Below are positions 1,334 through 58,315 of a stretch of 64,000 nucleotides of DNA, in pieces; the stretch's first letter is position 1; the number at the start of each line of letters is the position of its first letter. Under the pieces are notes generated by a model. The model saw only the letters and a list, made by a program, of their open reading frames with translations. It was not told the DNA's origin and made no database searches. This DNA is from a virus, in the IMG/VR virus record IMGVR_UViG_3300028608_000008, positions 32,001 to 96,000 of that record; one strand, written 5' to 3'. The position numbers and the translations under genes were made by a program.

Positions 1334-3661
1334 ATGCAAACTCTGACCGATTTCATCGAAGAAAAGATTGCGATTGCTGACGACTTTCGCGGTCTGGATT
1401 CGATTAACCCGGTCGAGATCGTGATCGAGGACGCGTACAAAAATAAGTACGTTGTCCTCGTTTCGCGTTTCGAACCGGACGCGGTAACTGTTCCATTCAA
1501 CGTGTGCTGGATCAACAATGATCCAAATCACAAAGACTACAAAACGCTGCAACGTCGCGTTGACGCGGAAGGCTATGACGACGGCAATTACCGTTACGTC
1601 TGGTCGGTGATTTCTACCGTCGAAGAAATCTTTACCGAATTGCAGTATTACAAAAAGGCTGCTGACCCGATTCTCGGCGAAGTCGATGATTTCGGTTTGC
1701 TGCCTGCAACCGTTTCCACTTTCGGTGCGTTCCGTGTTTCGGTCGATCCCGAAGTAGAAGACGACACCGTTTCGGTTGCCGATACCGATCCGCGCATGAG
1801 CGATGATCGTGAACCGGTTGACCATGACCACGGCGACCAAATCACCACCATGATCGCTGGCGGTTTTTCGGAAGTTGACGACGGTGAAGGTGGCACCACG
1901 CAGGAACAAAACATCGTTTACGTTTCTGCAAACCCGCCAAACAAAGGCGACATTTTTGTCGTTACCGCAGTTTCTCCAGACGGCCTGAGCTACACCGGCG
2001 AATGGAAAGCTCCGGATACTTCCATCGGTTACACCGGCCCGCTGCCAGCTTCGCTTTTGGTTGTCGGTCCCGGCGTTATCGTGGACAGCCTGACCAACCA
2101 TGTTTTGCGTGCAAACGTAACCATGGACGACGGCACCGTTTACAAATCGGTGCAGGCTGTTTGGGAAGTTATCGACAATGGCGAATGGGGTAAAGTTGGC
2201 AAAAACACTGGCGTGTTCCAAGCGCTGGAAGTTTTCGCACAACAAACCGTGCGCGTCAAAGCAACGTGGACCCATCCGGATTCCGGCGTTTCGATTTCCA
2301 ACTTCATCGACATTACCATTCGCGATGCGAGTGGCGTTGTGCGCCTGACCGGTTTGCAAATTCAAGGTCCGGGCCAGTTGGACAAAGGCGGCGCTCCGCA
2401 GCTTTATCAAGTGGTTGCAGAATACAGCAACGGCGATACCAATCTGGTAAACCCGAATTCCTTCACTTCGTCCAACGCGCAAGCGGGTACGTTTGTGAAC
2501 GGTACGCTGACTCCGCAATCGACTTTGGCCGGAAACAAAGTTACAACCCTGACCGCAAGTTTCACCAGCGGCGGCGTAACCAAAACTTCCACGCTGACTG
2601 TCACCGTGCGCGATGCTGACGTTTATCCAGACGGCATTACCATTCAGGGCGCGGGTTCGGTTAATCAGGGCACCACTTCTGATTACACCATTTCCGTTCA
2701 CTACACTGACGGTTCCACGCAAACCAAAAACGCAACTGCATGGTCGCTTTCGAGCACCACCGATGCAACCATTGCTGTTTCTGGTCGCCTGACTGCAAAA
2801 GCGATTACCGTGCCGGGCAACAAGTCGGTAACGATCAACGCTTCGCTGACCGAAAAAGGTGTGACCCTGACCGGCAGCCTCCCAGTCACCATCGTGGACA
2901 ACATCAACTATCCGGTAAGTGCGAAAATCACCGGTTCGCTTTCGGTAGCGGCTGGCGCAACTTCGCAATACACGTTGATGGTGAAATACAAAGACAACAC
3001 CGAAGTTGCGAAAACTCCTTCGGCGTGGACTTCTTCCAACACCACCAATGCGACCATCGACAACACCGGTTTGCTCACCGCGAAAAACATTTCGTCGGCT
3101 GCGACCGTTACCGTCGGTGCGACCTACTCGGAAAAGGGCGTGAATTTGTCTCCGACTTTGAACGTTCAAGTCACCGTTGCGGCACCGCAAGCGATTCGCT
3201 TCGGTATTGCGAAGTTTGCAAACAAAAACTTCACCGGTGGCATCATCGAACCGCTGACCCAACAGCAAATCGAGTACGGCGTTACCAACGACCATACTCC
3301 GGGCGGTCTGCAATACGATCATTGGGCAAACGTTCAGGCGTTCTTCAATGCCGTTATGACGCAAACCATTCCGGCAACTGGCGGCACTATTGATACTTCG
3401 GTCGGCCTCGACGAATATCTCTATGTTGCGTACCCGGCCACTATTTCCAGTCTGTCGTATCAGGATTTGGTTTCCAACTTCCCTGCGACCCTGACTGGCG
3501 TGAACTGGCCGGATGACGTAGTTGGCGAACCTTCGCCTGCGCCATCCGATGTTGCTTTGGTAAACGTCACCGTTGGCGGCGTAACTGGTCAGTGGAAAGT
3601 TCAGCGTATCGACTACGCCGGTCCGATGCAGACCAAGTTTGCTGTGACCGTAAACAACTAA
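1334..3661 (+). CDS. Ig-like (Big_2-type) repeat virion protein
   Basis: Shared N-terminal module followed by several ~90-aa Thr/Ser-rich beta repeats (e.g. AWTSSNTTNATIDNTGLLTAK). Confidence 0.75.
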   Translation: MQTLTDFIEEKIAIADDFRGLDSINPVEIVIEDAYKNKYVVLVSRFEPDAVTVPFNVCWINNDPNHKDYKTLQRRVDAEGYDDGNYRYVWSVISTVEEIFTELQYYKKAADPILGEVDDFGLLPATVSTFGAFRVSVDPEVEDDTVSVADTDPRMSDDREPVDHDHGDQITTMIAGGFSEVDDGEGGTTQEQNIVYVSANPPNKGDIFVVTAVSPDGLSYTGEWKAPDTSIGYTGPLPASLLVVGPGVIVDSLTNHVLRANVTMDDGTVYKSVQAVWEVIDNGEWGKVGKNTGVFQALEVFAQQTVRVKATWTHPDSGVSISNFIDITIRDASGVVRLTGLQIQGPGQLDKGGAPQLYQVVAEYSNGDTNLVNPNSFTSSNAQAGTFVNGTLTPQSTLAGNKVTTLTASFTSGGVTKTSTLTVTVRDADVYPDGITIQGAGSVNQGTTSDYTISVHYTDGSTQTKNATAWSLSSTTDATIAVSGRLTAKAITVPGNKSVTINASLTEKGVTLTGSLPVTIVDNINYPVSAKITGSLSVAAGATSQYTLMVKYKDNTEVAKTPSAWTSSNTTNATIDNTGLLTAKNISSAATVTVGATYSEKGVNLSPTLNVQVTVAAPQAIRFGIAKFANKNFTGGIIEPLTQQQIEYGVTNDHTPGGLQYDHWANVQAFFNAVMTQTIPATGGTIDTSVGLDEYLYVAYPATISSLSYQDLVSNFPATLTGVNWPDDVVGEPSPAPSDVALVNVTVGGVTGQWKVQRIDYAGPMQTKFAVTVNN

Positions 3662-3671
3662 GGGCAAAAAC

Positions 3672-5963
3672 GTGAACTTGAGTCAATGGGCGGAACAGCA
3701 AATCTCCATTGCTCAACTGTACCGCAACTTGTCTCAAGTGAACCCCGTAACTCTGTCCATCCAAAGCGGTGGACAGAGTTTTTCCGTTCTTGTGTCCCAC
3801 ACAGAGCCGGGGTTCAACGTTCCATTCAATGTGATTTGGGTTTACGCAGGCGAAGATTTTTACGGTGCAGTTCTCCGACGTGTTTCGGAAAACCCTTTGC
3901 CACCGTTCGCCAATGAATGGATCGAACTTGAAACCTCAGCCGAGCTTTTTTCGGAAGTGCAATACTGGCATCCGGACTTGCCCGAGCTTGGGGAAATCGA
4001 GCGATTTGCAGTTGGGCCAGCGACAACGGACAAACCCGGAATTTTTCGCACGACCACAAAGTATCGGGCCGTGGAAACCAATGCAAGGGAAATGAGCGAC
4101 GCACGCGAGGCACTGGAACACGAACACGATCAAGAACCGAATCAGTTTATTCAGGTTGGGGAATTGATAATCGACGTAAGCCAGAGCAAACCCCCAAAGG
4201 CGGGCGACGTTTTAGTAATCACAAAAATTGACGACGACGGCGTTTCAGGGGAGTGGATGCAATTGGCAGACAATGACATTCTTTATGACGGGCCGTGGCC
4301 GGTCAGTCTGCGCATCAACGGTCCGTCCGGGCCGGTAAACGAATTGACACAAGTGCAATTCACCGCAGACCTGATTTTCGAAGACGATACCGTAAAACGT
4401 ATCAAGCCGGTTTGGGAATTGAGTGACACGCTGGTAGGCACTCTTTCCGAAGACGGTATTTTTCAAGCCTACAACATCCAGCAAGATGTTACGGTAAAAA
4501 TCAAAGCGCGATTCTATCACGAAGAAACTGAAACCACGCTTTCCGCGTCGGTTGATCTTCTGGTTCGCGACGTTGACTCGAATCTGATACTCGCTAGTTT
4601 GGAAGTTTCGGGGCCGACCAACGTAAACAAAGGCGCAATCGCCACTTACACTGCGACCGCTGTTTTCACAAATGGCAGTCGTTCGCCAGTTGTTCCAGAT
4701 TACTGGCGCGTTGGTAATGCAGACGCGGGTTCGATCACTGGCGGCGGTATTTTCACTGCCAAGAAAGTTATCGGTTCGCAAGAAACACGCATCACCGCAA
4801 TGTACACGTACAAAGGTGTGACCAAGCAAGCGTTTATCGACGTTGAAGTTTTGGACACCACGGTTTATCCGCAGTCGGCGCGCATCATTGGCCCCGATAC
4901 GCTGGACGAAAACACCAATGGCACCTACAAACTTGAAGTGACGTTTATCAACGGACGTAAACAGGTTGTAGCGGTAAATGATTGGGCGCACACAAACCCA
5001 GCGGCTGGCCGCATCGGTCAATTGACTGGCACGTTTGTAGTTCCTGATCTGACCGAAAATCGCCAAACGAAAATCACCGCGTCGTATTCGCTGGAAGGTA
5101 CAACCATTGCAGCGGAGAAAGACATTTCGGTAATCGACACCACGGTCTACCCGGCCCGCATTGATATCATCGGTCCCGATTTCGTTATTGAAGGTCGCGC
5201 AGCGCAATTCAGCGCGCTGGTTTACTTCACCGATGGCACTAGCGGAACCCGTGCATTGACGTGGAAGCAAAACAGCACTGCATTCGGTTCCATTGATCCG
5301 GCCTCCGGAATCTTTACCGCAGTGGGCGATGTTGATTCTGACAAGTCGGTAAAAATCTCCACCTCGTTTACGGCAAACGGCCGCACCGTGAATGCTGAAA
5401 AAGACATTCTGGTAAAAACCACGCTCAACTTGCCAGTTAGTGCGTTGGTCACGGCACCGAGTGCTATGCGAGTTGGCGAATCGACTACGCTTTTGTTTAC
5501 GGTCACGTATGCGGACGGCACCACGGCTCGGGTTAAACCACAGTGGGCGCTTTCCAATTCAAACATTGCCTCCATTTCTGCCGACGGCCTTTTGACCGCG
5601 AAGCAAGTTTTGGAAGCGAGTGTAATAACGGTTGAAGGGACGTACAGCGCATCTGGCGTAACGATTAAAGCGCAAGCAGTCGTGACGATTAACGATTTGA
5701 TTTCGCGTCCGCTGTCCGCCAGCATTGTCGGCCCCGCTTCGGTATCCACAACCAACACAGCGCAATTCCAACTTTCGGTGAAATTCTCCGATGGTGGCGA
5801 GCGTCTGGTTGCAGGCGTTTGGCAATCGTCTGATCGCAATGTCGCGACAATTGATTCCTCCGGTATTTTGCGGCCATACGCAACGGGCGTAACCACGTTG
5901 ACGGCTGTTTATTCCGCGCAGGGGCAGACGGTTTCTTCGACAAAAGAGATTACGGTAATATGA
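3672..5963 (+). CDS. Ig-like (Big_2-type) repeat virion protein
   Basis: GTG start; shared N-terminal module; repeats such as WQSSDRNVATIDSSGILR and WALSNSNIASISADGLLTAK. Confidence 0.75.
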   Translation: MNLSQWAEQQISIAQLYRNLSQVNPVTLSIQSGGQSFSVLVSHTEPGFNVPFNVIWVYAGEDFYGAVLRRVSENPLPPFANEWIELETSAELFSEVQYWHPDLPELGEIERFAVGPATTDKPGIFRTTTKYRAVETNAREMSDAREALEHEHDQEPNQFIQVGELIIDVSQSKPPKAGDVLVITKIDDDGVSGEWMQLADNDILYDGPWPVSLRINGPSGPVNELTQVQFTADLIFEDDTVKRIKPVWELSDTLVGTLSEDGIFQAYNIQQDVTVKIKARFYHEETETTLSASVDLLVRDVDSNLILASLEVSGPTNVNKGAIATYTATAVFTNGSRSPVVPDYWRVGNADAGSITGGGIFTAKKVIGSQETRITAMYTYKGVTKQAFIDVEVLDTTVYPQSARIIGPDTLDENTNGTYKLEVTFINGRKQVVAVNDWAHTNPAAGRIGQLTGTFVVPDLTENRQTKITASYSLEGTTIAAEKDISVIDTTVYPARIDIIGPDFVIEGRAAQFSALVYFTDGTSGTRALTWKQNSTAFGSIDPASGIFTAVGDVDSDKSVKISTSFTANGRTVNAEKDILVKTTLNLPVSALVTAPSAMRVGESTTLLFTVTYADGTTARVKPQWALSNSNIASISADGLLTAKQVLEASVITVEGTYSASGVTIKAQAVVTINDLISRPLSASIVGPASVSTTNTAQFQLSVKFSDGGERLVAGVWQSSDRNVATIDSSGILRPYATGVTTLTAVYSAQGQTVSSTKEITVI

Positions 5964-31660: not shown

Positions 31661-34126
31661 ATGCAAGCGACTCTGAATATTGAGGGCTTGGCGTATTGCT
31701 CAATCGACATTGAAGGTTCTTCGGTTCCTCCGTCGATGAACATGCTGAGTAGCATTTTGATTATGGAAGGTTTCGGAATGGGTCTGCCCGTTCTGCAACT
31801 GATCCTCAACGACGAAAAAGAGTCGCTGTCCAAAGAACTCGCGATTGCCGACGGCTCGCGCATTGTGATTCGCATGGGCCGCGACACCAAGAATATCAAG
31901 GAATGTCCGTTTCGTGTTTTCGGGTGGCGCCGTTCGCGTTCCACTTCCGGACCGCGTTTGGAAATTGTTGGTTTGCTTGACGTTCCGGAATTCGGCGCGG
32001 GCGCTTTTTGCGAAGCGTTCCGTGTCAGTTCCAGCGACCTGATGGCGCAGATTGCCAGCCTTTGCGGTTTGACCTATGACGGTCCAGCACAAAACACCGA
32101 CGACCTGATGACGTGGTTGAATTTAAACACAACTCGTTTGTCGTTTACCGAAGACGTAGCCATGCGTGGTTACACTTCCGAACAATCGTGCATGGCGCGT
32201 ATCGTGACCATGGACAAAACCCTGCGCTACAAAAACCTGTTTGACGTGCTGTCCGATAAACCGAAATTCACTTTCGTGCATGACACCACGGGCGCAGGCA
32301 CCGAAGGCGTTGTGGTTTCTGTTCGCGAATCTCGGGACGCTTCTGTTTCGGGCATGGGCGCACACCACGTCAACTACGGGCAAAAGCATTACCAACACGA
32401 AGGCAATGGCATTGACGAAGAAATTCTGACATTGACCGCGCCGCTTCTCGGCACCGGTTTGCCATTGAATGACGACGTGTTGCAGAAACTCAAAGAGCGC
32501 GGTTCTCGCGTTTCCTATTCTGGTTTCGATCCGGGCACAGCGCCAACTGCGGACGACGCGGTTCACCAGTTTTACGAAAACGCGTATTACCAAAACCTGC
32601 GCTTCCTGTCGTTGTTTAGCGAACGCCTTGTTTTGCTGAATGACCAATGCACCGATTCGAAATCGTTTGACCCGGTTGCCTACCTGCTGAAAAACGATAA
32701 GCAGAACGGTACGCCAACTGTCAGCGCCGACGTGTCGAGCCAGTATGTGCTGGGCGGTAAATCCATTCTGATTAAAAACGGTTTGCGGTTTGCCGAAGCG
32801 CATTATCTGTATCGACCATTCCTTTCGACGCCTGCAAAGAAAGGTCAAGATTCTGGACAGGCTCCGGTTGCGCAAAACGCCAGCGCTTCCAGTTCCGGAC
32901 CAATCGCGGCAGCCGCAACGCAAACAAATGCAAACACGGCCACCAACCTTTCTTCGCAATTGGTTGCGGGTGAAGGTGGCGGCATTCCAGTTCCGGCGAC
33001 AACGGCTGCAATGGACAGCATGAAATCGCTGGATGCGTTCAACAGCGCGTTCCCGGCAGTTCCGAGCATTGCAACAAACTTGGCACCGAATGCACAAATG
33101 CGAAGTGCTATGGATGGCGTGCGTTCCAGTACGGCAGCACTCGACAACATCGGTGGGCCACTGGGCGCAAGTATCAAAGCTGCAAACGTTATTCCGGCCG
33201 ACACCTCATACTTCCAGCGCGTCACAGCATTCGGCGGCGATATGCTTTCGAATTTGACCGATGGTTTCAACATAAACCGTATTGCATCGGACATTGATTA
33301 TGCGCGAAGCAATTCTACAAGTTTTAAAGCGGCTGCTATTGGCCGCGTTAGTGGCGCTTTTGGCGATGTTACTGGTTTCCGGGTTAATAATATCGTCAGT
33401 GCTGCCACTGGTGGACGCCTCAACAAAGGCGCTATCGTCGGTGAAGTTCTCGGTGGTGGAATATGGGCGGCGGACCTTGCAACAGGCGGCATGGGAGCGG
33501 GCCAACTTGACCTTCCGTTCACGTTGCCGTTTGTGGATACGGCGGCTGGTAAAGTAACGACAAATTTCCTGATGGATACGACCGGTTTCGGAATCGGGCC
33601 GGACAACATCACAATCAACCCGCACAAAACCGCACGCGCCGTAAACGCGTTTGCAAATTCCACAAACCCACAACAGTTGCTGCTGACCCAAGGTGCAGAT
33701 TCTTACATCAAAACGTTTGGCAACGTAACGCCAACCGATGCCGCTTCGAGTCTGCAAGAACTTTCGGTAATCTCGGCCAAGGTAATGTCGCAGTACGGAC
33801 AAAACGAATATCTTTCCGACGACGCCCGAACCAACAAAGCACTGATCTACGCAGGTCGCGAAACAATCTTCTCGTTTGGCGGCAAGGGCGCAACGCCATT
33901 GCTAAACTCGGTAGAAAAAGTTTACGACTACGGCGGTTATCAAAACGTCGAGACAACAAAGCAAGCCACCACATGGGCGCGCCTTTACTCAATGGGCAAA
34001 GACGTTACCAACAAAGCCGGACAGTGGGAGGCGCCGGTGTTCCCGTCACTCGCAACCGAAACGGATACAACTGCTGGTTTGTCGAATTCGTATTCCAGCA
34101 ACGCAACGCGCTACTTTGGTGGGTAA
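31661..34126 (+). CDS. Baseplate hub protein (gp27/VgrG-like N-terminus, inferred) with long Ala/Ser/Thr-rich C-terminus
   Basis: 821 aa after gp53-like gene; function from position and beta-rich N-terminal ~390 aa. Confidence 0.5.
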   Translation: MQATLNIEGLAYCSIDIEGSSVPPSMNMLSSILIMEGFGMGLPVLQLILNDEKESLSKELAIADGSRIVIRMGRDTKNIKECPFRVFGWRRSRSTSGPRLEIVGLLDVPEFGAGAFCEAFRVSSSDLMAQIASLCGLTYDGPAQNTDDLMTWLNLNTTRLSFTEDVAMRGYTSEQSCMARIVTMDKTLRYKNLFDVLSDKPKFTFVHDTTGAGTEGVVVSVRESRDASVSGMGAHHVNYGQKHYQHEGNGIDEEILTLTAPLLGTGLPLNDDVLQKLKERGSRVSYSGFDPGTAPTADDAVHQFYENAYYQNLRFLSLFSERLVLLNDQCTDSKSFDPVAYLLKNDKQNGTPTVSADVSSQYVLGGKSILIKNGLRFAEAHYLYRPFLSTPAKKGQDSGQAPVAQNASASSSGPIAAAATQTNANTATNLSSQLVAGEGGGIPVPATTAAMDSMKSLDAFNSAFPAVPSIATNLAPNAQMRSAMDGVRSSTAALDNIGGPLGASIKAANVIPADTSYFQRVTAFGGDMLSNLTDGFNINRIASDIDYARSNSTSFKAAAIGRVSGAFGDVTGFRVNNIVSAATGGRLNKGAIVGEVLGGGIWAADLATGGMGAGQLDLPFTLPFVDTAAGKVTTNFLMDTTGFGIGPDNITINPHKTARAVNAFANSTNPQQLLLTQGADSYIKTFGNVTPTDAASSLQELSVISAKVMSQYGQNEYLSDDARTNKALIYAGRETIFSFGGKGATPLLNSVEKVYDYGGYQNVETTKQATTWARLYSMGKDVTNKAGQWEAPVFPSLATETDTTAGLSNSYSSNATRYFGG

Positions 34127-55137: not shown

Positions 55138-57146
55138 TGCAAACTCCAATGACCAAAGGCCAACGCAAACAAGCCCGCGACGATTGGCATCTGCGCTGGA
55201 ATCAAGCGCTCAAACATACCGGCCTTGACCGCATTTACAAAACCAATCTGCGCTTTGATATGACCACAAACAAAGCCAACAAGGAAACCCGGTTCACGGC
55301 CATTGGCTTTGCCCATATTCAGAATATCCCACAAACGTTTACCATCGTCGGCTACGCAACCGGCGAGCAGAAAAATGGCCGCGCCTGTTTCGATATCTAC
55401 GACCTATCCTATAGCCTCGGTTCGGATGTTGAAATGCAAATCGACACCGACGCCGAAGATATGCCGCCGTTGGCTGGCGACCTGACCGAAATCGGCCCGG
55501 CCATTCTCAACCGCATTTTCGAAAGTTTGCACGCGCAGTTGCCAGCGGTCGAACGCTCCAAAGCGGAAGCCGAACAAGATCGCCGCGCCTGTGACGAAAC
55601 CCTGAAAAAGTTGGTACAGGCAGCGGTCAAGAAATGCCACGCTAAAGGCATCGCGTTTCAGTTTATTGAAGCGTACCGCTTTTTCAGTGACACCCGCGTA
55701 GAACAACCGTACTACGCAAAAGCTGTTTTCAAGATCAACGAACAGCACAGCGACATTCGTTTCAAGTTTAAGCGTATCGGCACCGAACAGGAATTCGTTC
55801 TGGAATCGGTCACGGTTGACGGGCGGGATCGCGAAATCAATTTCCGCGTGTCGCCGTTCACTGTTCAAAACGCAATCGTTGTCGGTATGCGCAACGCAAT
55901 CAAATGGATCAAAGAGGGATTCAAGATGGACTCCACTGCAATCGAAAAAGACCCGGTAGCCGAACAAGTTGGCGCCAAGAAAACCCCGGCTGCGAAAAAG
56001 CCAGCCGTGAAAAAGACCGCCAAGGTTATCGAAAACGGCGAACTGAAAGATGCGCCAAAAGGCGCGGTCAAAGTCGTGAAGAAAAAGCCAGCCGTCAAAC
56101 GTGCAGCCCGTCCGACCAAAGCTGAACTGGCCGCGAAGCCAATCCCGAAAATCAAAACCAGCCCGGACGATTTCAAGAATCTGGCAAACGGCATTATGGG
56201 CAAACCTCCGGTGGAAGAACTGAACGAAGACCAGCAACAGATTGTTCGCGTCTTTGCCGATCAACTCGGTGAGCCAGTTTCGAAATTCACAATGGCGACC
56301 GAACTCACGGCGACCGGCGCTGACGAACTCGACCTCGTTGAAATCGTGATGCAAATCGAAGAAGAATTCGAGTTTGATATGCCCGACAACATCGAGCACG
56401 AATGCAAAACCATTGGCGACCTGTACACCCACGTCGCCGAGAAAAAGGCCGAACTCGCCGCAGCCGCCGCAGCACAACCCAAAACCAAAGCGCGCCGCGC
56501 TTCGAAAGCGAAGGTCGAAGCGGAAACCGGCAAACAACCGCGCATGACCACGCCGAAACCGAAGGCGAAAGGCAAACCGAAAGCCGCTGGTTCTGCAAAC
56601 TTCGACGCGGTTAATGACGGCAAGCTGGCGAACCGTTCGAACAACCAAACGGCGAAACCTTTGCCTGCGCCGAAAACCAAAGCCGATTCGCTCAAGTGGG
56701 ATTCGCTGGACGAGGCGGAACTGGTGCGCATGCGCAAACAGTTGGTGACGACCGCCACCCGAATCAAACTGTTGGAACGGGCGAAAGAAAACGGCGTGAC
56801 CGCCTCGGTTCAAGTGACCGCTGACGTGAAAGCGAAAATGAAAGACGAACTGTTGATTGCCGAAATCAAACAGTTGGCAAACCTCTACGGCTTCACGTTC
56901 TACAAAGCGAAAAAGGTCGAAGACTTCGCCGACAAGTTTACGCTCAAGCGCACGTATATGGACGGCACCAAAGTCGCAATCGTGATTCATTACGACGACA
57001 GTTCGCAACACCGTTTCGTAATGGAAACCGATAAGCTGCCGAAAGGCGCGAAGAACAGCCTCCACACGCTGCCGGTCGAACTGAAAACCAAAGCGCAGAT
57101 GTTGGCCGTACTGCGCAAGCTGGGCGCCACCAACAACCGGAAGTAA
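55137..57146 (+). CDS. Multidomain protein: unknown N-domain, Ala/Lys/Pro-rich linkers, central acyl-carrier-protein-like domain lacking the Ser, unknown C-domain
   Basis: IVRVFADQLG..TGADELDLVEIVMQIEEEFEFDMPD..CKTIGDLYTHV (~56241-56444) aligns with ACP; TAATG coupling to the TraR/DksA gene. Confidence 0.75.
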   Translation: MQTPMTKGQRKQARDDWHLRWNQALKHTGLDRIYKTNLRFDMTTNKANKETRFTAIGFAHIQNIPQTFTIVGYATGEQKNGRACFDIYDLSYSLGSDVEMQIDTDAEDMPPLAGDLTEIGPAILNRIFESLHAQLPAVERSKAEAEQDRRACDETLKKLVQAAVKKCHAKGIAFQFIEAYRFFSDTRVEQPYYAKAVFKINEQHSDIRFKFKRIGTEQEFVLESVTVDGRDREINFRVSPFTVQNAIVVGMRNAIKWIKEGFKMDSTAIEKDPVAEQVGAKKTPAAKKPAVKKTAKVIENGELKDAPKGAVKVVKKKPAVKRAARPTKAELAAKPIPKIKTSPDDFKNLANGIMGKPPVEELNEDQQQIVRVFADQLGEPVSKFTMATELTATGADELDLVEIVMQIEEEFEFDMPDNIEHECKTIGDLYTHVAEKKAELAAAAAAQPKTKARRASKAKVEAETGKQPRMTTPKPKAKGKPKAAGSANFDAVNDGKLANRSNNQTAKPLPAPKTKADSLKWDSLDEAELVRMRKQLVTTATRIKLLERAKENGVTASVQVTADVKAKMKDELLIAEIKQLANLYGFTFYKAKKVEDFADKFTLKRTYMDGTKVAIVIHYDDSSQHRFVMETDKLPKGAKNSLHTLPVELKTKAQMLAVLRKLGATNNRK

Positions 57147-57198: not shown

Positions 57199-57417
57199 AT
57201 GGACGTTTTTGTTTATTCAAACGTTTTCGCGCTGGTAGGACTGCTGACAATGGGCACGGCTGCCCTGATTATCATTCTGATTATTCAGTCACTCCAACTT
57301 CGCGATTGGCGCAAACGGGCGCTCATTGCGGAATCCGAATGCAAACAAATGTACTCGCTGTACGGGCCACACCACGCCAAGGATATTTCCCCAAATGGAA
57401 AAAGTTTCTCGCTCTAA
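57199..57417 (+). CDS. Small membrane protein
   Basis: N-terminal hydrophobic helix. Confidence 0.55.
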   Translation: MDVFVYSNVFALVGLLTMGTAALIIILIIQSLQLRDWRKRALIAESECKQMYSLYGPHHAKDISPNGKSFSL

Positions 57418-58315
57418 GGTTCAATACGCCCCACAAATTGAACGCATGCGTGATTCGTTTGTCACTGACTTCGAACACAACGGCCATCCTGAGTACCGCA
57501 TTCCACAGGCCGACTTCGAAAATCGCGCAGCACTCTTTCTTCGCTACGGCGAAACCGAAGAAGGCCGTTTCAAAAACATGATGCGCGACCTGATGAAAAC
57601 CGCGCAACTGAAAATCAGCTTCCTTGAAGGTGAAGTGATTTTCACCAAAAGCACTGCGCCGGTTCCGCAGGCAAACAAAACCCGCGCCGCTGATTACCGG
57701 ACCCGCATTCCGCGTCCGCAGTGGCAAGGCATTCTCGACACGGCAATGCCACGGATCATTGCCGACCTGAAACACCGGACGGCACCAACCACGTCGTATA
57801 CGCACGCGCAGTTTTTCGACCTGCTGACGTTCTGGCCTAGCGATGCAATGTTTGTCGAATTGCTGGAAATACGTTTGGGCAAACTCGGTTACGATATCGA
57901 AGTGCTCAAGTCGGTCGTGCGTCTGAGCAACCGCAACGCCGGGGCTGCGAAGGTTACGAAAACTCCGAAGCCTCCAATCATCAAAATGTTTAACGCGCAG
58001 GAACTGTTTGCGGTTCTGGAGAAAACCTTCTGCCAGACGCTTGAGGAACTGCGTGAAATGAAGTTTGCAGGCGCGTACAGTCACGTCGTCACCCTGCAAG
58101 ATCACCCGACGGATTCCGAAAAAGGTCCGCAAAAGATTTTCTTTGTTGACGAGGATATGCAAGTCGTCGGCGGGCGCAAGGTTGACGAAATCGAACTGCG
58201 CGTTGGCGATATCGTGCTGACCAATGAAGCGGGCGCCAAACAATTCCGCAAGGCAGTCCGCTTCGTCAACGAATCACCACGCCGCATGTGCAGCGTGCGC
58301 AAAATCAAATTCTAA
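57395..58315 (+). CDS. Hypothetical protein
   Basis: AAGGA RBS suggests ATG 57395 (ORF open from 57326). Confidence 0.6.
   Translation: MEKVSRSKVQYAPQIERMRDSFVTDFEHNGHPEYRIPQADFENRAALFLRYGETEEGRFKNMMRDLMKTAQLKISFLEGEVIFTKSTAPVPQANKTRAADYRTRIPRPQWQGILDTAMPRIIADLKHRTAPTTSYTHAQFFDLLTFWPSDAMFVELLEIRLGKLGYDIEVLKSVVRLSNRNAGAAKVTKTPKPPIIKMFNAQELFAVLEKTFCQTLEELREMKFAGAYSHVVTLQDHPTDSEKGPQKIFFVDEDMQVVGGRKVDEIELRVGDIVLTNEAGAKQFRKAVRFVNESPRRMCSVRKIKF

Follow-up and report, generated by a model that had tools for sequence, protein, structure and literature searches.

An AcpP-like domain with glutamate at the cofactor-serine site in the basic linker of a modular jumbo-phage protein

What could a bacteriophage gain from an acyl carrier protein (ACP) that appears unable to carry anything? 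The question is raised by an open reading frame (ORF) encoding a 669-residue modular protein in a 64,000-nucleotide stretch of an uncultured jumbo (giant) phage (IMG/VR record IMGVR_UViG_3300028608_000008, positions 32,001 to 96,000; this whole stretch is hereafter called the window, and its numbering is used throughout), in which a domain resembling AcpP, the ACP of bacterial type II fatty-acid synthesis, has glutamate at the position of the phosphopantetheine-bearing serine. In bacteria, ACP is highly connected, its partners being fatty-acid, lipid A, and phospholipid enzymes and also SpoT, MukB, and IscS. An earlier note on this DNA, made from its letters, had interpreted the domain as a non-modifiable decoy that would hijack an ACP-binding host protein. 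The features on which the answer depends are the following.

55137..57146, + strand: ORF of the 669-residue modular protein with the ACP-like domain
56214..56474, + strand: ACP-fold domain, residues 360-446, recognized by Pfam, phmmer, and fold matches; net charge -17, isoelectric point 4.05
56325..56327, + strand: GAA codon of Glu397, at the position of the phosphopantetheine serine (Ser36 of Escherichia coli AcpP) and the first residue of predicted helix II, placed by the sequence and HMMER alignments
56319..56420, + strand: helix II, loop, and helix III, residues 395-428, the partner-recognition face of ACPs and the best-conserved part of the domain (62% identity to P0003, a protein of the same family)

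The Pfam PP-binding model (PF00550) was found to match residues 367-433 over its full length (model positions 1-67 of 67) with 33.1 bits against a cut-off of 20.8, which places the domain in this family; the same model gave 37.9 bits in a six-frame search of the genome, and phrog_5934, annotated as "acyl carrier protein", was matched with an E-value of 9.7e-16. Among solved structures (PDB), phmmer retrieved ACPs only, the best of which was AcpP from Aquifex aeolicus (2ehs, E 3.4e-10). A word-index search with the ACP domain alone returned nothing. The model of the domain, with a predicted local distance difference test (pLDDT) value of ~75, displayed the four-helix fold of ACPs, giving template modeling (TM) scores of 0.86-0.89 and root-mean-square deviations (rmsd) of 1.2-1.5 A against solved ACPs in Foldseek, and VIA fold matches to ACPs with Z of 10-12.4 over 73-82 residues. 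As both sequence and model indicate, the domain is a genuine AcpP-derived fold, and the likeness to ACP claimed in the earlier note thus withstood the AlphaFold/Foldseek comparison that it had recommended.

Compared with AcpP itself (Aquifex 2ehs/2eht and E. coli 1l0h, especially in the apo form), the domain has the same four-helix fold, is 34% identical to 2eht/2ehs, and shares the G-A-D-x-L-D motif, the acidic/Leu-Val-Met face of helix II, the EEEF motif, and the I/M-P-D turn. In contrast to AcpP, it has Glu in place of the cofactor serine, a loop before helix II that is one residue shorter, and no conservation at the Leu32 position, and it lies internally in a 669-residue protein, between basic disordered linkers, with a score under the AcpP equivalog cut-off.

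At the cofactor site, nucleotides 56322-56330 read GAC GAA CTC (Asp-Glu-Leu), within the peptide quoted earlier, residues 369-436 (56241-56444). In the alignment with 2ehs, GADELDLVEIVM was matched without gaps to GADSLDVVELIM, with GADELD lying over GADSLD and Glu397 therefore on the phosphopantetheine serine; the same residue was placed on the serine column by a hidden Markov model (HMM) of Ser-type domains, and DSSP assigned residues 397-411 of the model to helix II. The replacement of Ser by Glu at 56325-56327, as first read from the sequence, was thus reproduced both in the codon, read directly as GAA, and in its alignment to the serine column of solved ACPs. A sequencing error as the source of this codon was rejected, since no codon for Ser is fewer than two substitutions away from GAA; a single-base error, which the note had called unlikely, cannot produce it from any of them.

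Identity as an AcpP equivalog was likewise rejected, as TIGR00517 gave 46.6 bits against a cut-off of 70.45 and the cofactor serine is absent; the other NCBIfam ACP models also scored below their cut-offs. The window protein has no Ser at or beside the site (T-A-T-G-A-D-E-L-D), and a second ACP-like motif at residues 522-530 (DSLDEAELV) was dismissed as a chance resemblance, scoring 1.1 bits, lying in a long helix of the C-terminal domain, and not being conserved in P0003. Because Glu replaces the residue that bears 4'-phosphopantetheine, acyl-carrier activity of the domain through the canonical site is excluded, as judged from its sequence, and carrier function was rejected on the Glu at the Ser column. 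In the partial 124-kb record, no phosphopantetheinyl transferase (PPTase) gene (PF01648), no acyl-transfer genes, and no second carrier domain were found; a host PPTase could act.

The docking face of helix II was revealed to be kept, comprising D396, D399, E402, I403-V404-M405, E408-E410, and F411, together with P416 and D417. In E. coli ACP, L42-V43-M44 of helix II, ringed by acidic residues, is recognized by SpoT and fatty-acid enzymes (PMC3340395). With the acidic and hydrophobic residues retained and I403-V404-M405 located at L42-V43-M44, what had been pointed out earlier about docking through helix II applies to this domain. Furthermore, the activation of MukB is the same with apo- as with holo-AcpP (PMC8602292), and this indifference to the cofactor makes it plausible that a serine-less mimic could bind such a partner; by this analogy, ACP partners independent of the cofactor exist.

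The reading that we prefer, and consider rather probable, is that of a docking module, free of the cofactor and tethered in a larger protein. An AcpP-like (type II) domain would have been inserted, in the lineage of the window phage, into the basic linker of a protein composed of an N-domain, a linker, and a C-domain, and would have retained the ACP fold and the acidic/hydrophobic face of helices II and III for docking on basic patches of partners. Thus tethered, it would offer a recognition helix of the AcpP kind to its partner, for which a host AcpP-binding protein, a phage protein, or the basic linkers of the protein itself are candidates. The acidic residue at the N-terminus of helix II might serve as a helix cap or imitate the phosphate of the missing cofactor.

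An acidic residue at this position was found to be the recurrent replacement in serine-less domains. Among the best 150 representatives matching the query, the serine column was occupied by Ser in 140, Glu in 14, and Asp in 6 (aligned domains were counted, and the cluster of the query itself was included). As to whether the serine-less forms share a common descent or lost the serine independently, the best-scoring relatives of the window domain were of the Ser type and the Glu-type matches ranked lower; the domain is too short for a reliable tree. In phages, the site was occupied as follows.

Ackermannviridae, five genera (Dickeya, Klebsiella, Salmonella, Shigella, and Serratia phages): Glu, within GGDELD or FDELD
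Aeromonas phages Aswh_1 and ZPAH1, N-terminus of rIIB: Glu, within GLDELD
Pseudomonas jumbo phage Lu11, gp353: Asp, within GVDDLD
phiRSL1, Motura, phiCbK, ICP1 gp97, Vibrio phage helene, HRDY3 (two genes), Yersinia fHe-Yen9-04, and Erythrobacter R6L: Ser at the serine site

With its acidic residue at the serine site, its ACP fold, and its kept helix II face, the window domain belongs among the serine-less phage ACP look-alikes. The "putative acyl carrier proteins" of Ackermannviridae (Dickeya phiDP10.3 HQ82_0156, Salmonella Maynard_88, Shigella AG3 gp126, Klebsiella UPM2146 gp148, and Serratia phiMAM1 gp092) resemble it in the Glu at the serine site, the conserved helix II, and the EEEF motif, but differ in that they are stand-alone proteins of 90-108 residues having an N-terminal extension and a divergent helix III-IV region, four of the five following a gene for a vWA-domain protein. 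Since their identity to the window domain is only ~34% over the matched part, the serine was probably lost independently in the two. The closest relatives from isolated phages are ACPs of the phrog_5934 type, namely, Ralstonia phiRSL1 ORF083 and that of Achromobacter phage Motura (~35% identity; TM 0.85 for the BFVD fold of the latter), which differ from the window domain in having kept the serine (GGDSLD and DLDSLD) and in being stand-alone proteins of ~80 residues. Lu11 gp353, rIIB of Aswh_1 and ZPAH1, and cellular proteins with DUF4190, LmeA-like, or trypsin-like domains are similar to it in that the serine is replaced by an acidic residue, helix II is intact, and the ACP-like domain is joined to unrelated ones; they differ in the proteins to which the domain is joined, in its N- or C-terminal location rather than one in a linker, and, in several of the cellular ones, in the presence of signal peptides, lipoboxes, and membrane anchors.

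As for the individual fusions, rIIB of Aswh_1 (MH791414.1; L015:1390-2634) consists of a Glu-type ACP-like domain, a helix-turn-helix-like stretch, and the rIIB core, and its N-terminus is 97.7% identical to that of ZPAH1. Lu11 gp353 (L017:1240-1662) is a "hypothetical protein" of 140 residues, the C-terminal half of which is an Asp-type ACP-like domain. The cellular metagenomic proteins P0025, P0052, P0119, P0149, P0081, and P0029 join a Glu/Asp-type domain to one of several elements (a DUF4190 membrane anchor, an LmeA-like domain, a protease resembling trypsin, a lipobox, or a signal peptide), an arrangement which suggests that the cellular serine-less domains are located at or beyond the membrane. 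One Glu/Asp-type cellular protein, from a Chthoniobacterales genome, has been annotated as "acyl carrier protein". Ser-type domains were also seen outside the classical carrier contexts, in P0013 and P0020, which are proteins of 245-268 residues with Pro-rich linkers, the latter ending in an AbrB/SpoVT-like segment. No study of serine-less phage ACPs was found in the open-access literature on phage, Ackermannviridae, and rIIB-linked ACPs, ACP mimics, and anti-defence, which is not proof of absence.

In the family of the 669-residue protein, for which eight representatives were retrieved from 1.8 billion proteins, the ACP insert was present in two of the eight, the window protein (P0001) and P0003, which are 58% identical overall. 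The identity between them is 43% over the whole ACP domain and is distributed unevenly, amounting to 62% in helix II, the loop, and helix III (395-428), 26% in helix I and its loop, and 39% in helix IV; in addition, a non-canonical IEHE-K stretch is common only to these two. The contrast between helices II-III and helix I argues for a kept binding surface and against decay. A captured ACP domain that is drifting with no role of its own would agree with the lower identity of the domain (43%, against 60-73% for the flanking domains) and with its absence from most family members. However, the reading frame is intact, the fold is predicted at the pLDDT of ~75 given above, the conservation is non-uniform and concentrated on helices II and III, and many lineages have independently arrived at an acidic residue in this position; such a relic thus seems very unlikely.

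Several points nevertheless weigh against a docking module. Partner binding is predicted from conservation alone, and the argument from conservation is a single pair, one close homologue having the domain. This domain evolves faster than the flanking ones, which could signal relaxed constraint. That the docking residues (AcpP D35, D38, E41, M44, E47-49, F50, P55, and D56) were at least as conserved in the 29 Glu/Asp-type domains as in the 149 Ser-type ones speaks for docking, but this set is made up of matches to the window domain, and both groups are biased toward its motif. Moreover, P0003 has the motif A-D-S-V-D-A-E-I-D, and the HMM of Ser-type ACPs puts the Ser of its DSVD on the serine column, with V-D-A-E as a four-residue insertion, so that P0003 might still be modifiable. 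Without S-V-D-A, this motif becomes A-D-E-I-D, which is close to the A-D-E-L-D of the window, and the Glu of the latter may have arisen by a four-codon deletion rather than by substitution.

On the conservation of Glu in homologues, which the earlier note had named as a check, the Glu of P0003 aligns with Glu397 when the alignment is anchored on helix II, but the Ser-type HMM prefers the upstream Ser; in P0003 the helix may thus be longer by one turn and begin with a serine that has been retained. The conclusion on the window protein is unaffected by this caveat, because Ser is absent there both from the site and from the residues beside it. That the domain continues to act as a carrier, with the modification on a non-canonical residue or, in P0003 and similar relatives, on the serine of the DSVD motif upstream, would be favored by the placement of A-D-S-V-D of P0003 on the modification site by the Ser-type HMM. 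It is nevertheless extremely improbable in view of the serine-free T-A-T-G-A-D-E-L-D of the window protein, the lack of PPTase and acyl-transfer genes in the 124-kb record, and the score under the AcpP equivalog cut-off.

The domain forms the middle part of a protein for which the AlphaFold2 model of the family gave three folded parts (1-264, 360-446, and 523-666) and two disordered stretches (265-359 and 447-522). The parts flanking the domain are as follows.

55137..55928, + strand: N-terminal domain, residues 1-264, two tandem units of a helix and a four-strand sheet; AlphaFold2 pLDDT 81.8
55929..56213, + strand: basic disordered linker 1, residues 265-359; net charge +13, pLDDT ~30
56475..56702, + strand: basic disordered linker 2, residues 447-522; net charge +13, pLDDT ~30
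56703..57143, + strand: C-terminal domain, residues 523-669, two long helices, a four-strand sheet, and a helix; pLDDT ~80

Both linkers, which had already been described as Ala/Lys/Pro-rich, proved to contain 47-51% Ala+Pro+Lys and are predicted to be disordered. Linker 1 also harbors a short motif, PTKAELAAKP-I/V-PK (PTKAELAAKPIPK; 56085-56130), conserved in the window protein, P0005, P0009, and P0010, that may be a linear binding motif. The N-domain, conserved in all family members with 51 invariant positions, is 73% identical to that of P0003; the C-domain is 60% identical to its counterpart and is kept in six of the eight representatives, being absent from the two shortest (P0010 and P0011). 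Neither domain could be assigned to a family of Pfam, PHROGs, or NCBIfam, and Atlas searches gave weak structural neighbors only, the units of both being helix and four-strand-sheet arrangements of a common kind. In a fold search with the N-domain alone, the best match reached only Z 7.5 (the phage P1 head chain), followed by generic capping-protein, UBC/RWD-like, and NTF2-like folds, and no family could be named. The VirB8-like OrfG, returned by Foldseek, was rejected as a fold match owing to a very poor superposition (rmsd ~20 A).

Relatives of the protein are scarce: four were retrieved in a word-indexed search of 5.8 billion proteins, five strong matches were found among 1.84 billion cluster representatives, and a scan of viral contigs for the family yielded one locus (L004). 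Searched by tblastn against 50,697 phage records, the whole protein gave no match, and two scans of JGI metagenome contigs with family alignments retrieved no relative. In this alignment, a Lys/Ala/Pro-rich linker of variable length separates the conserved N- and C-domains. The members without the ACP insert have a basic linker only, with a net charge of +15 to +31, as against +11 to +13 overall in the ACP-bearing pair. In P0005 (alignment A2, columns ~280-390), a different insert of ~100 residues, seemingly folded, was observed where this linker begins. The linker of this family may thus be a hot spot for accessory domains. Taken as a whole, the earlier note was right about the AcpP-derived fold, the domain not being modifiable at the canonical site, and the kept face of helix II, but it had overlooked that the domain was inserted, in one lineage only, into the basic and disordered linker of a conserved modular protein.

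The charge layout of +13, -17, and +13 along the linkers and the domain raises the question of whether the ACP fold serves merely as a compact acidic scaffold, the domain being a counter-ion, an autoinhibitor, or a nucleic-acid mimic that tunes histone-H1-like tails on DNA, RNA, or membranes. The difference in net charge between linkers with and without the insert would fit such a role, as would insertion within a disordered linker that accepts an unrelated insert in P0005. On the other hand, the conserved I-V-M core of helix II and the IEHE-K stretch shared with P0003 suggest a defined protein interface and not bulk charge, and the stand-alone serine-less phage ACPs have no basic tails. We therefore regard an intramolecular or electrostatic role as unlikely, and retain the docking module as the preferred reading.

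The record from which the window derives has a length of 124 kb and an estimated completeness of ~44%, and its long ORFs are all on one strand. PHROG matches comprised tail proteins, an NAD-dependent ligase, and an ATPase, the last of which is 38-40% identical to the ATPases of the Pseudomonas jumbo phages PaBG, HRDY3, and Lu11; the phages carrying the 669-residue family are distant relatives of these three. A megablast search with 20 kb of the window gave no match. Elsewhere in the window, two adjacent paralogous genes encoding ~770 residues (1334-3661 and 3672-5963) both match phrog_13325 and a tail-protein PHROG and have an HNH-like N-terminal stretch. The neighborhood of the 669-residue protein gene contains the following features.

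54006..54848, + strand: upstream gene, 280 residues, with a Lys/Ala/Pro-rich middle and a C-terminal KTSC domain (Pfam KTSC, 57.5 bits)
54864..54887, + strand: terminator-like hairpin followed by a T-run, just 5' of the TraR start; consensus scan, 10-pair stem with 5 GC pairs, TTTTTT, a pattern match only
54895..55137, + strand: TraR/DksA-type C4 zinc-finger protein, 80 residues (Pfam zf-dskA_traR, 40.8 bits against a cut-off of 24.9)
57326..58315, + strand: downstream gene, start uncertain, a conserved neighbor (the gene that follows the L004 homologue is 42% identical to it, E 1e-82)

The stop codon of the TraR/DksA gene, TAA at 55135-55137, overlaps the ATG at 55137 (TAATG), as the note had it; AGGA lies ~10 nt upstream. 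Given the hairpin at 54864-54887, which lies between the KTSC gene and TraR, the expression of TraR and the 669-residue protein gene may be separate from that of the KTSC gene or depend on read-through. The downstream gene gave no match in Pfam, PHROG, or NCBIfam. In a related, complete 275-kb phage (genome G001, locus L004), the family homologue lies between the same KTSC and downstream genes, with no TraR in between; the KTSC-gene homologue is directly upstream of the family gene and is 62% identical in its C-terminal part. This KTSC protein (L004:6844-7917) holds two copies of the middle module, ending ERNNRGNLRVKP, of which its counterpart in the window has one. Neither a TraR/DksA zinc finger nor a PP-binding domain was found in the whole of the 275-kb genome. 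On this sequence comparison, TraR and the ACP insert can both be counted as accessory to the lineage of the window; they lie ~1.1 kb apart, with the coding region of the conserved N-domain between them.

These neighbors bear on the idea of a decoy, according to which a non-modifiable AcpP mimic titrates the host SpoT, an SMC-type complex, AcpS, or a lipid enzyme and forms, with TraR/DksA, a module that rewires the stringent response and transcription. The helix II residues for the binding of SpoT and fatty-acid synthesis enzymes are retained, and MukB accepts apo-AcpP (PMC8602292). TraR is translationally coupled to the 669-residue protein gene through TAATG, and TraR and the ACP insert occur together in the window phage and are both missing from G001 despite its synteny (KTSC gene, family homologue, and downstream gene). 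This co-occurrence, however, compares one genome with one, and the intervening coding region of the conserved N-domain implies two separate insertions; other serine-less phage ACPs, such as those by the Ackermannviridae vWA gene, the Aeromonas rIIB fusion, and the hypothetical genes of Lu11, have no TraR neighbor. The interaction between SpoT and ACP is reportedly lost in ACP S36T. As for MukB, the relatives of the window phage infect Pseudomonas, which is not known to have MukBEF. Tethering inside a 669-residue protein with basic tails would also be an odd design for simple titration. Taking both sides together, we consider a decoy of this kind unlikely.

A broader version, in which the tethered AcpP mimic captures a cofactor-independent partner (an SMC-type chromosome or defence complex, or SpoT), was acquired with TraR/DksA as a host-takeover module, and represents, with the other Glu/Asp "pseudo-ACPs", an unrecognized docking class across phage lineages and bacterial envelope proteins, appears to us quite unlikely. 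The cofactor-free docking module remains the reading that we favor.

The non-carrier, AcpP-derived module grafted into this modular jumbo-phage protein is a further member of a recurring and apparently unpublished class. Databases label such genes "acyl carrier protein" and count them as auxiliary metabolic genes, which is wrong for the serine-less forms. As the present instance shows, an ACP module can be accommodated by a larger protein within its disordered linker, and the theme extends to rIIB fusions and to membrane-anchored cellular proteins. A family of phage domains with the docking helix of ACP but no capacity for loading would provide a probe of the cofactor-independent part of the ACP network, and would also be a candidate for a new host-takeover or counter-defence strategy.

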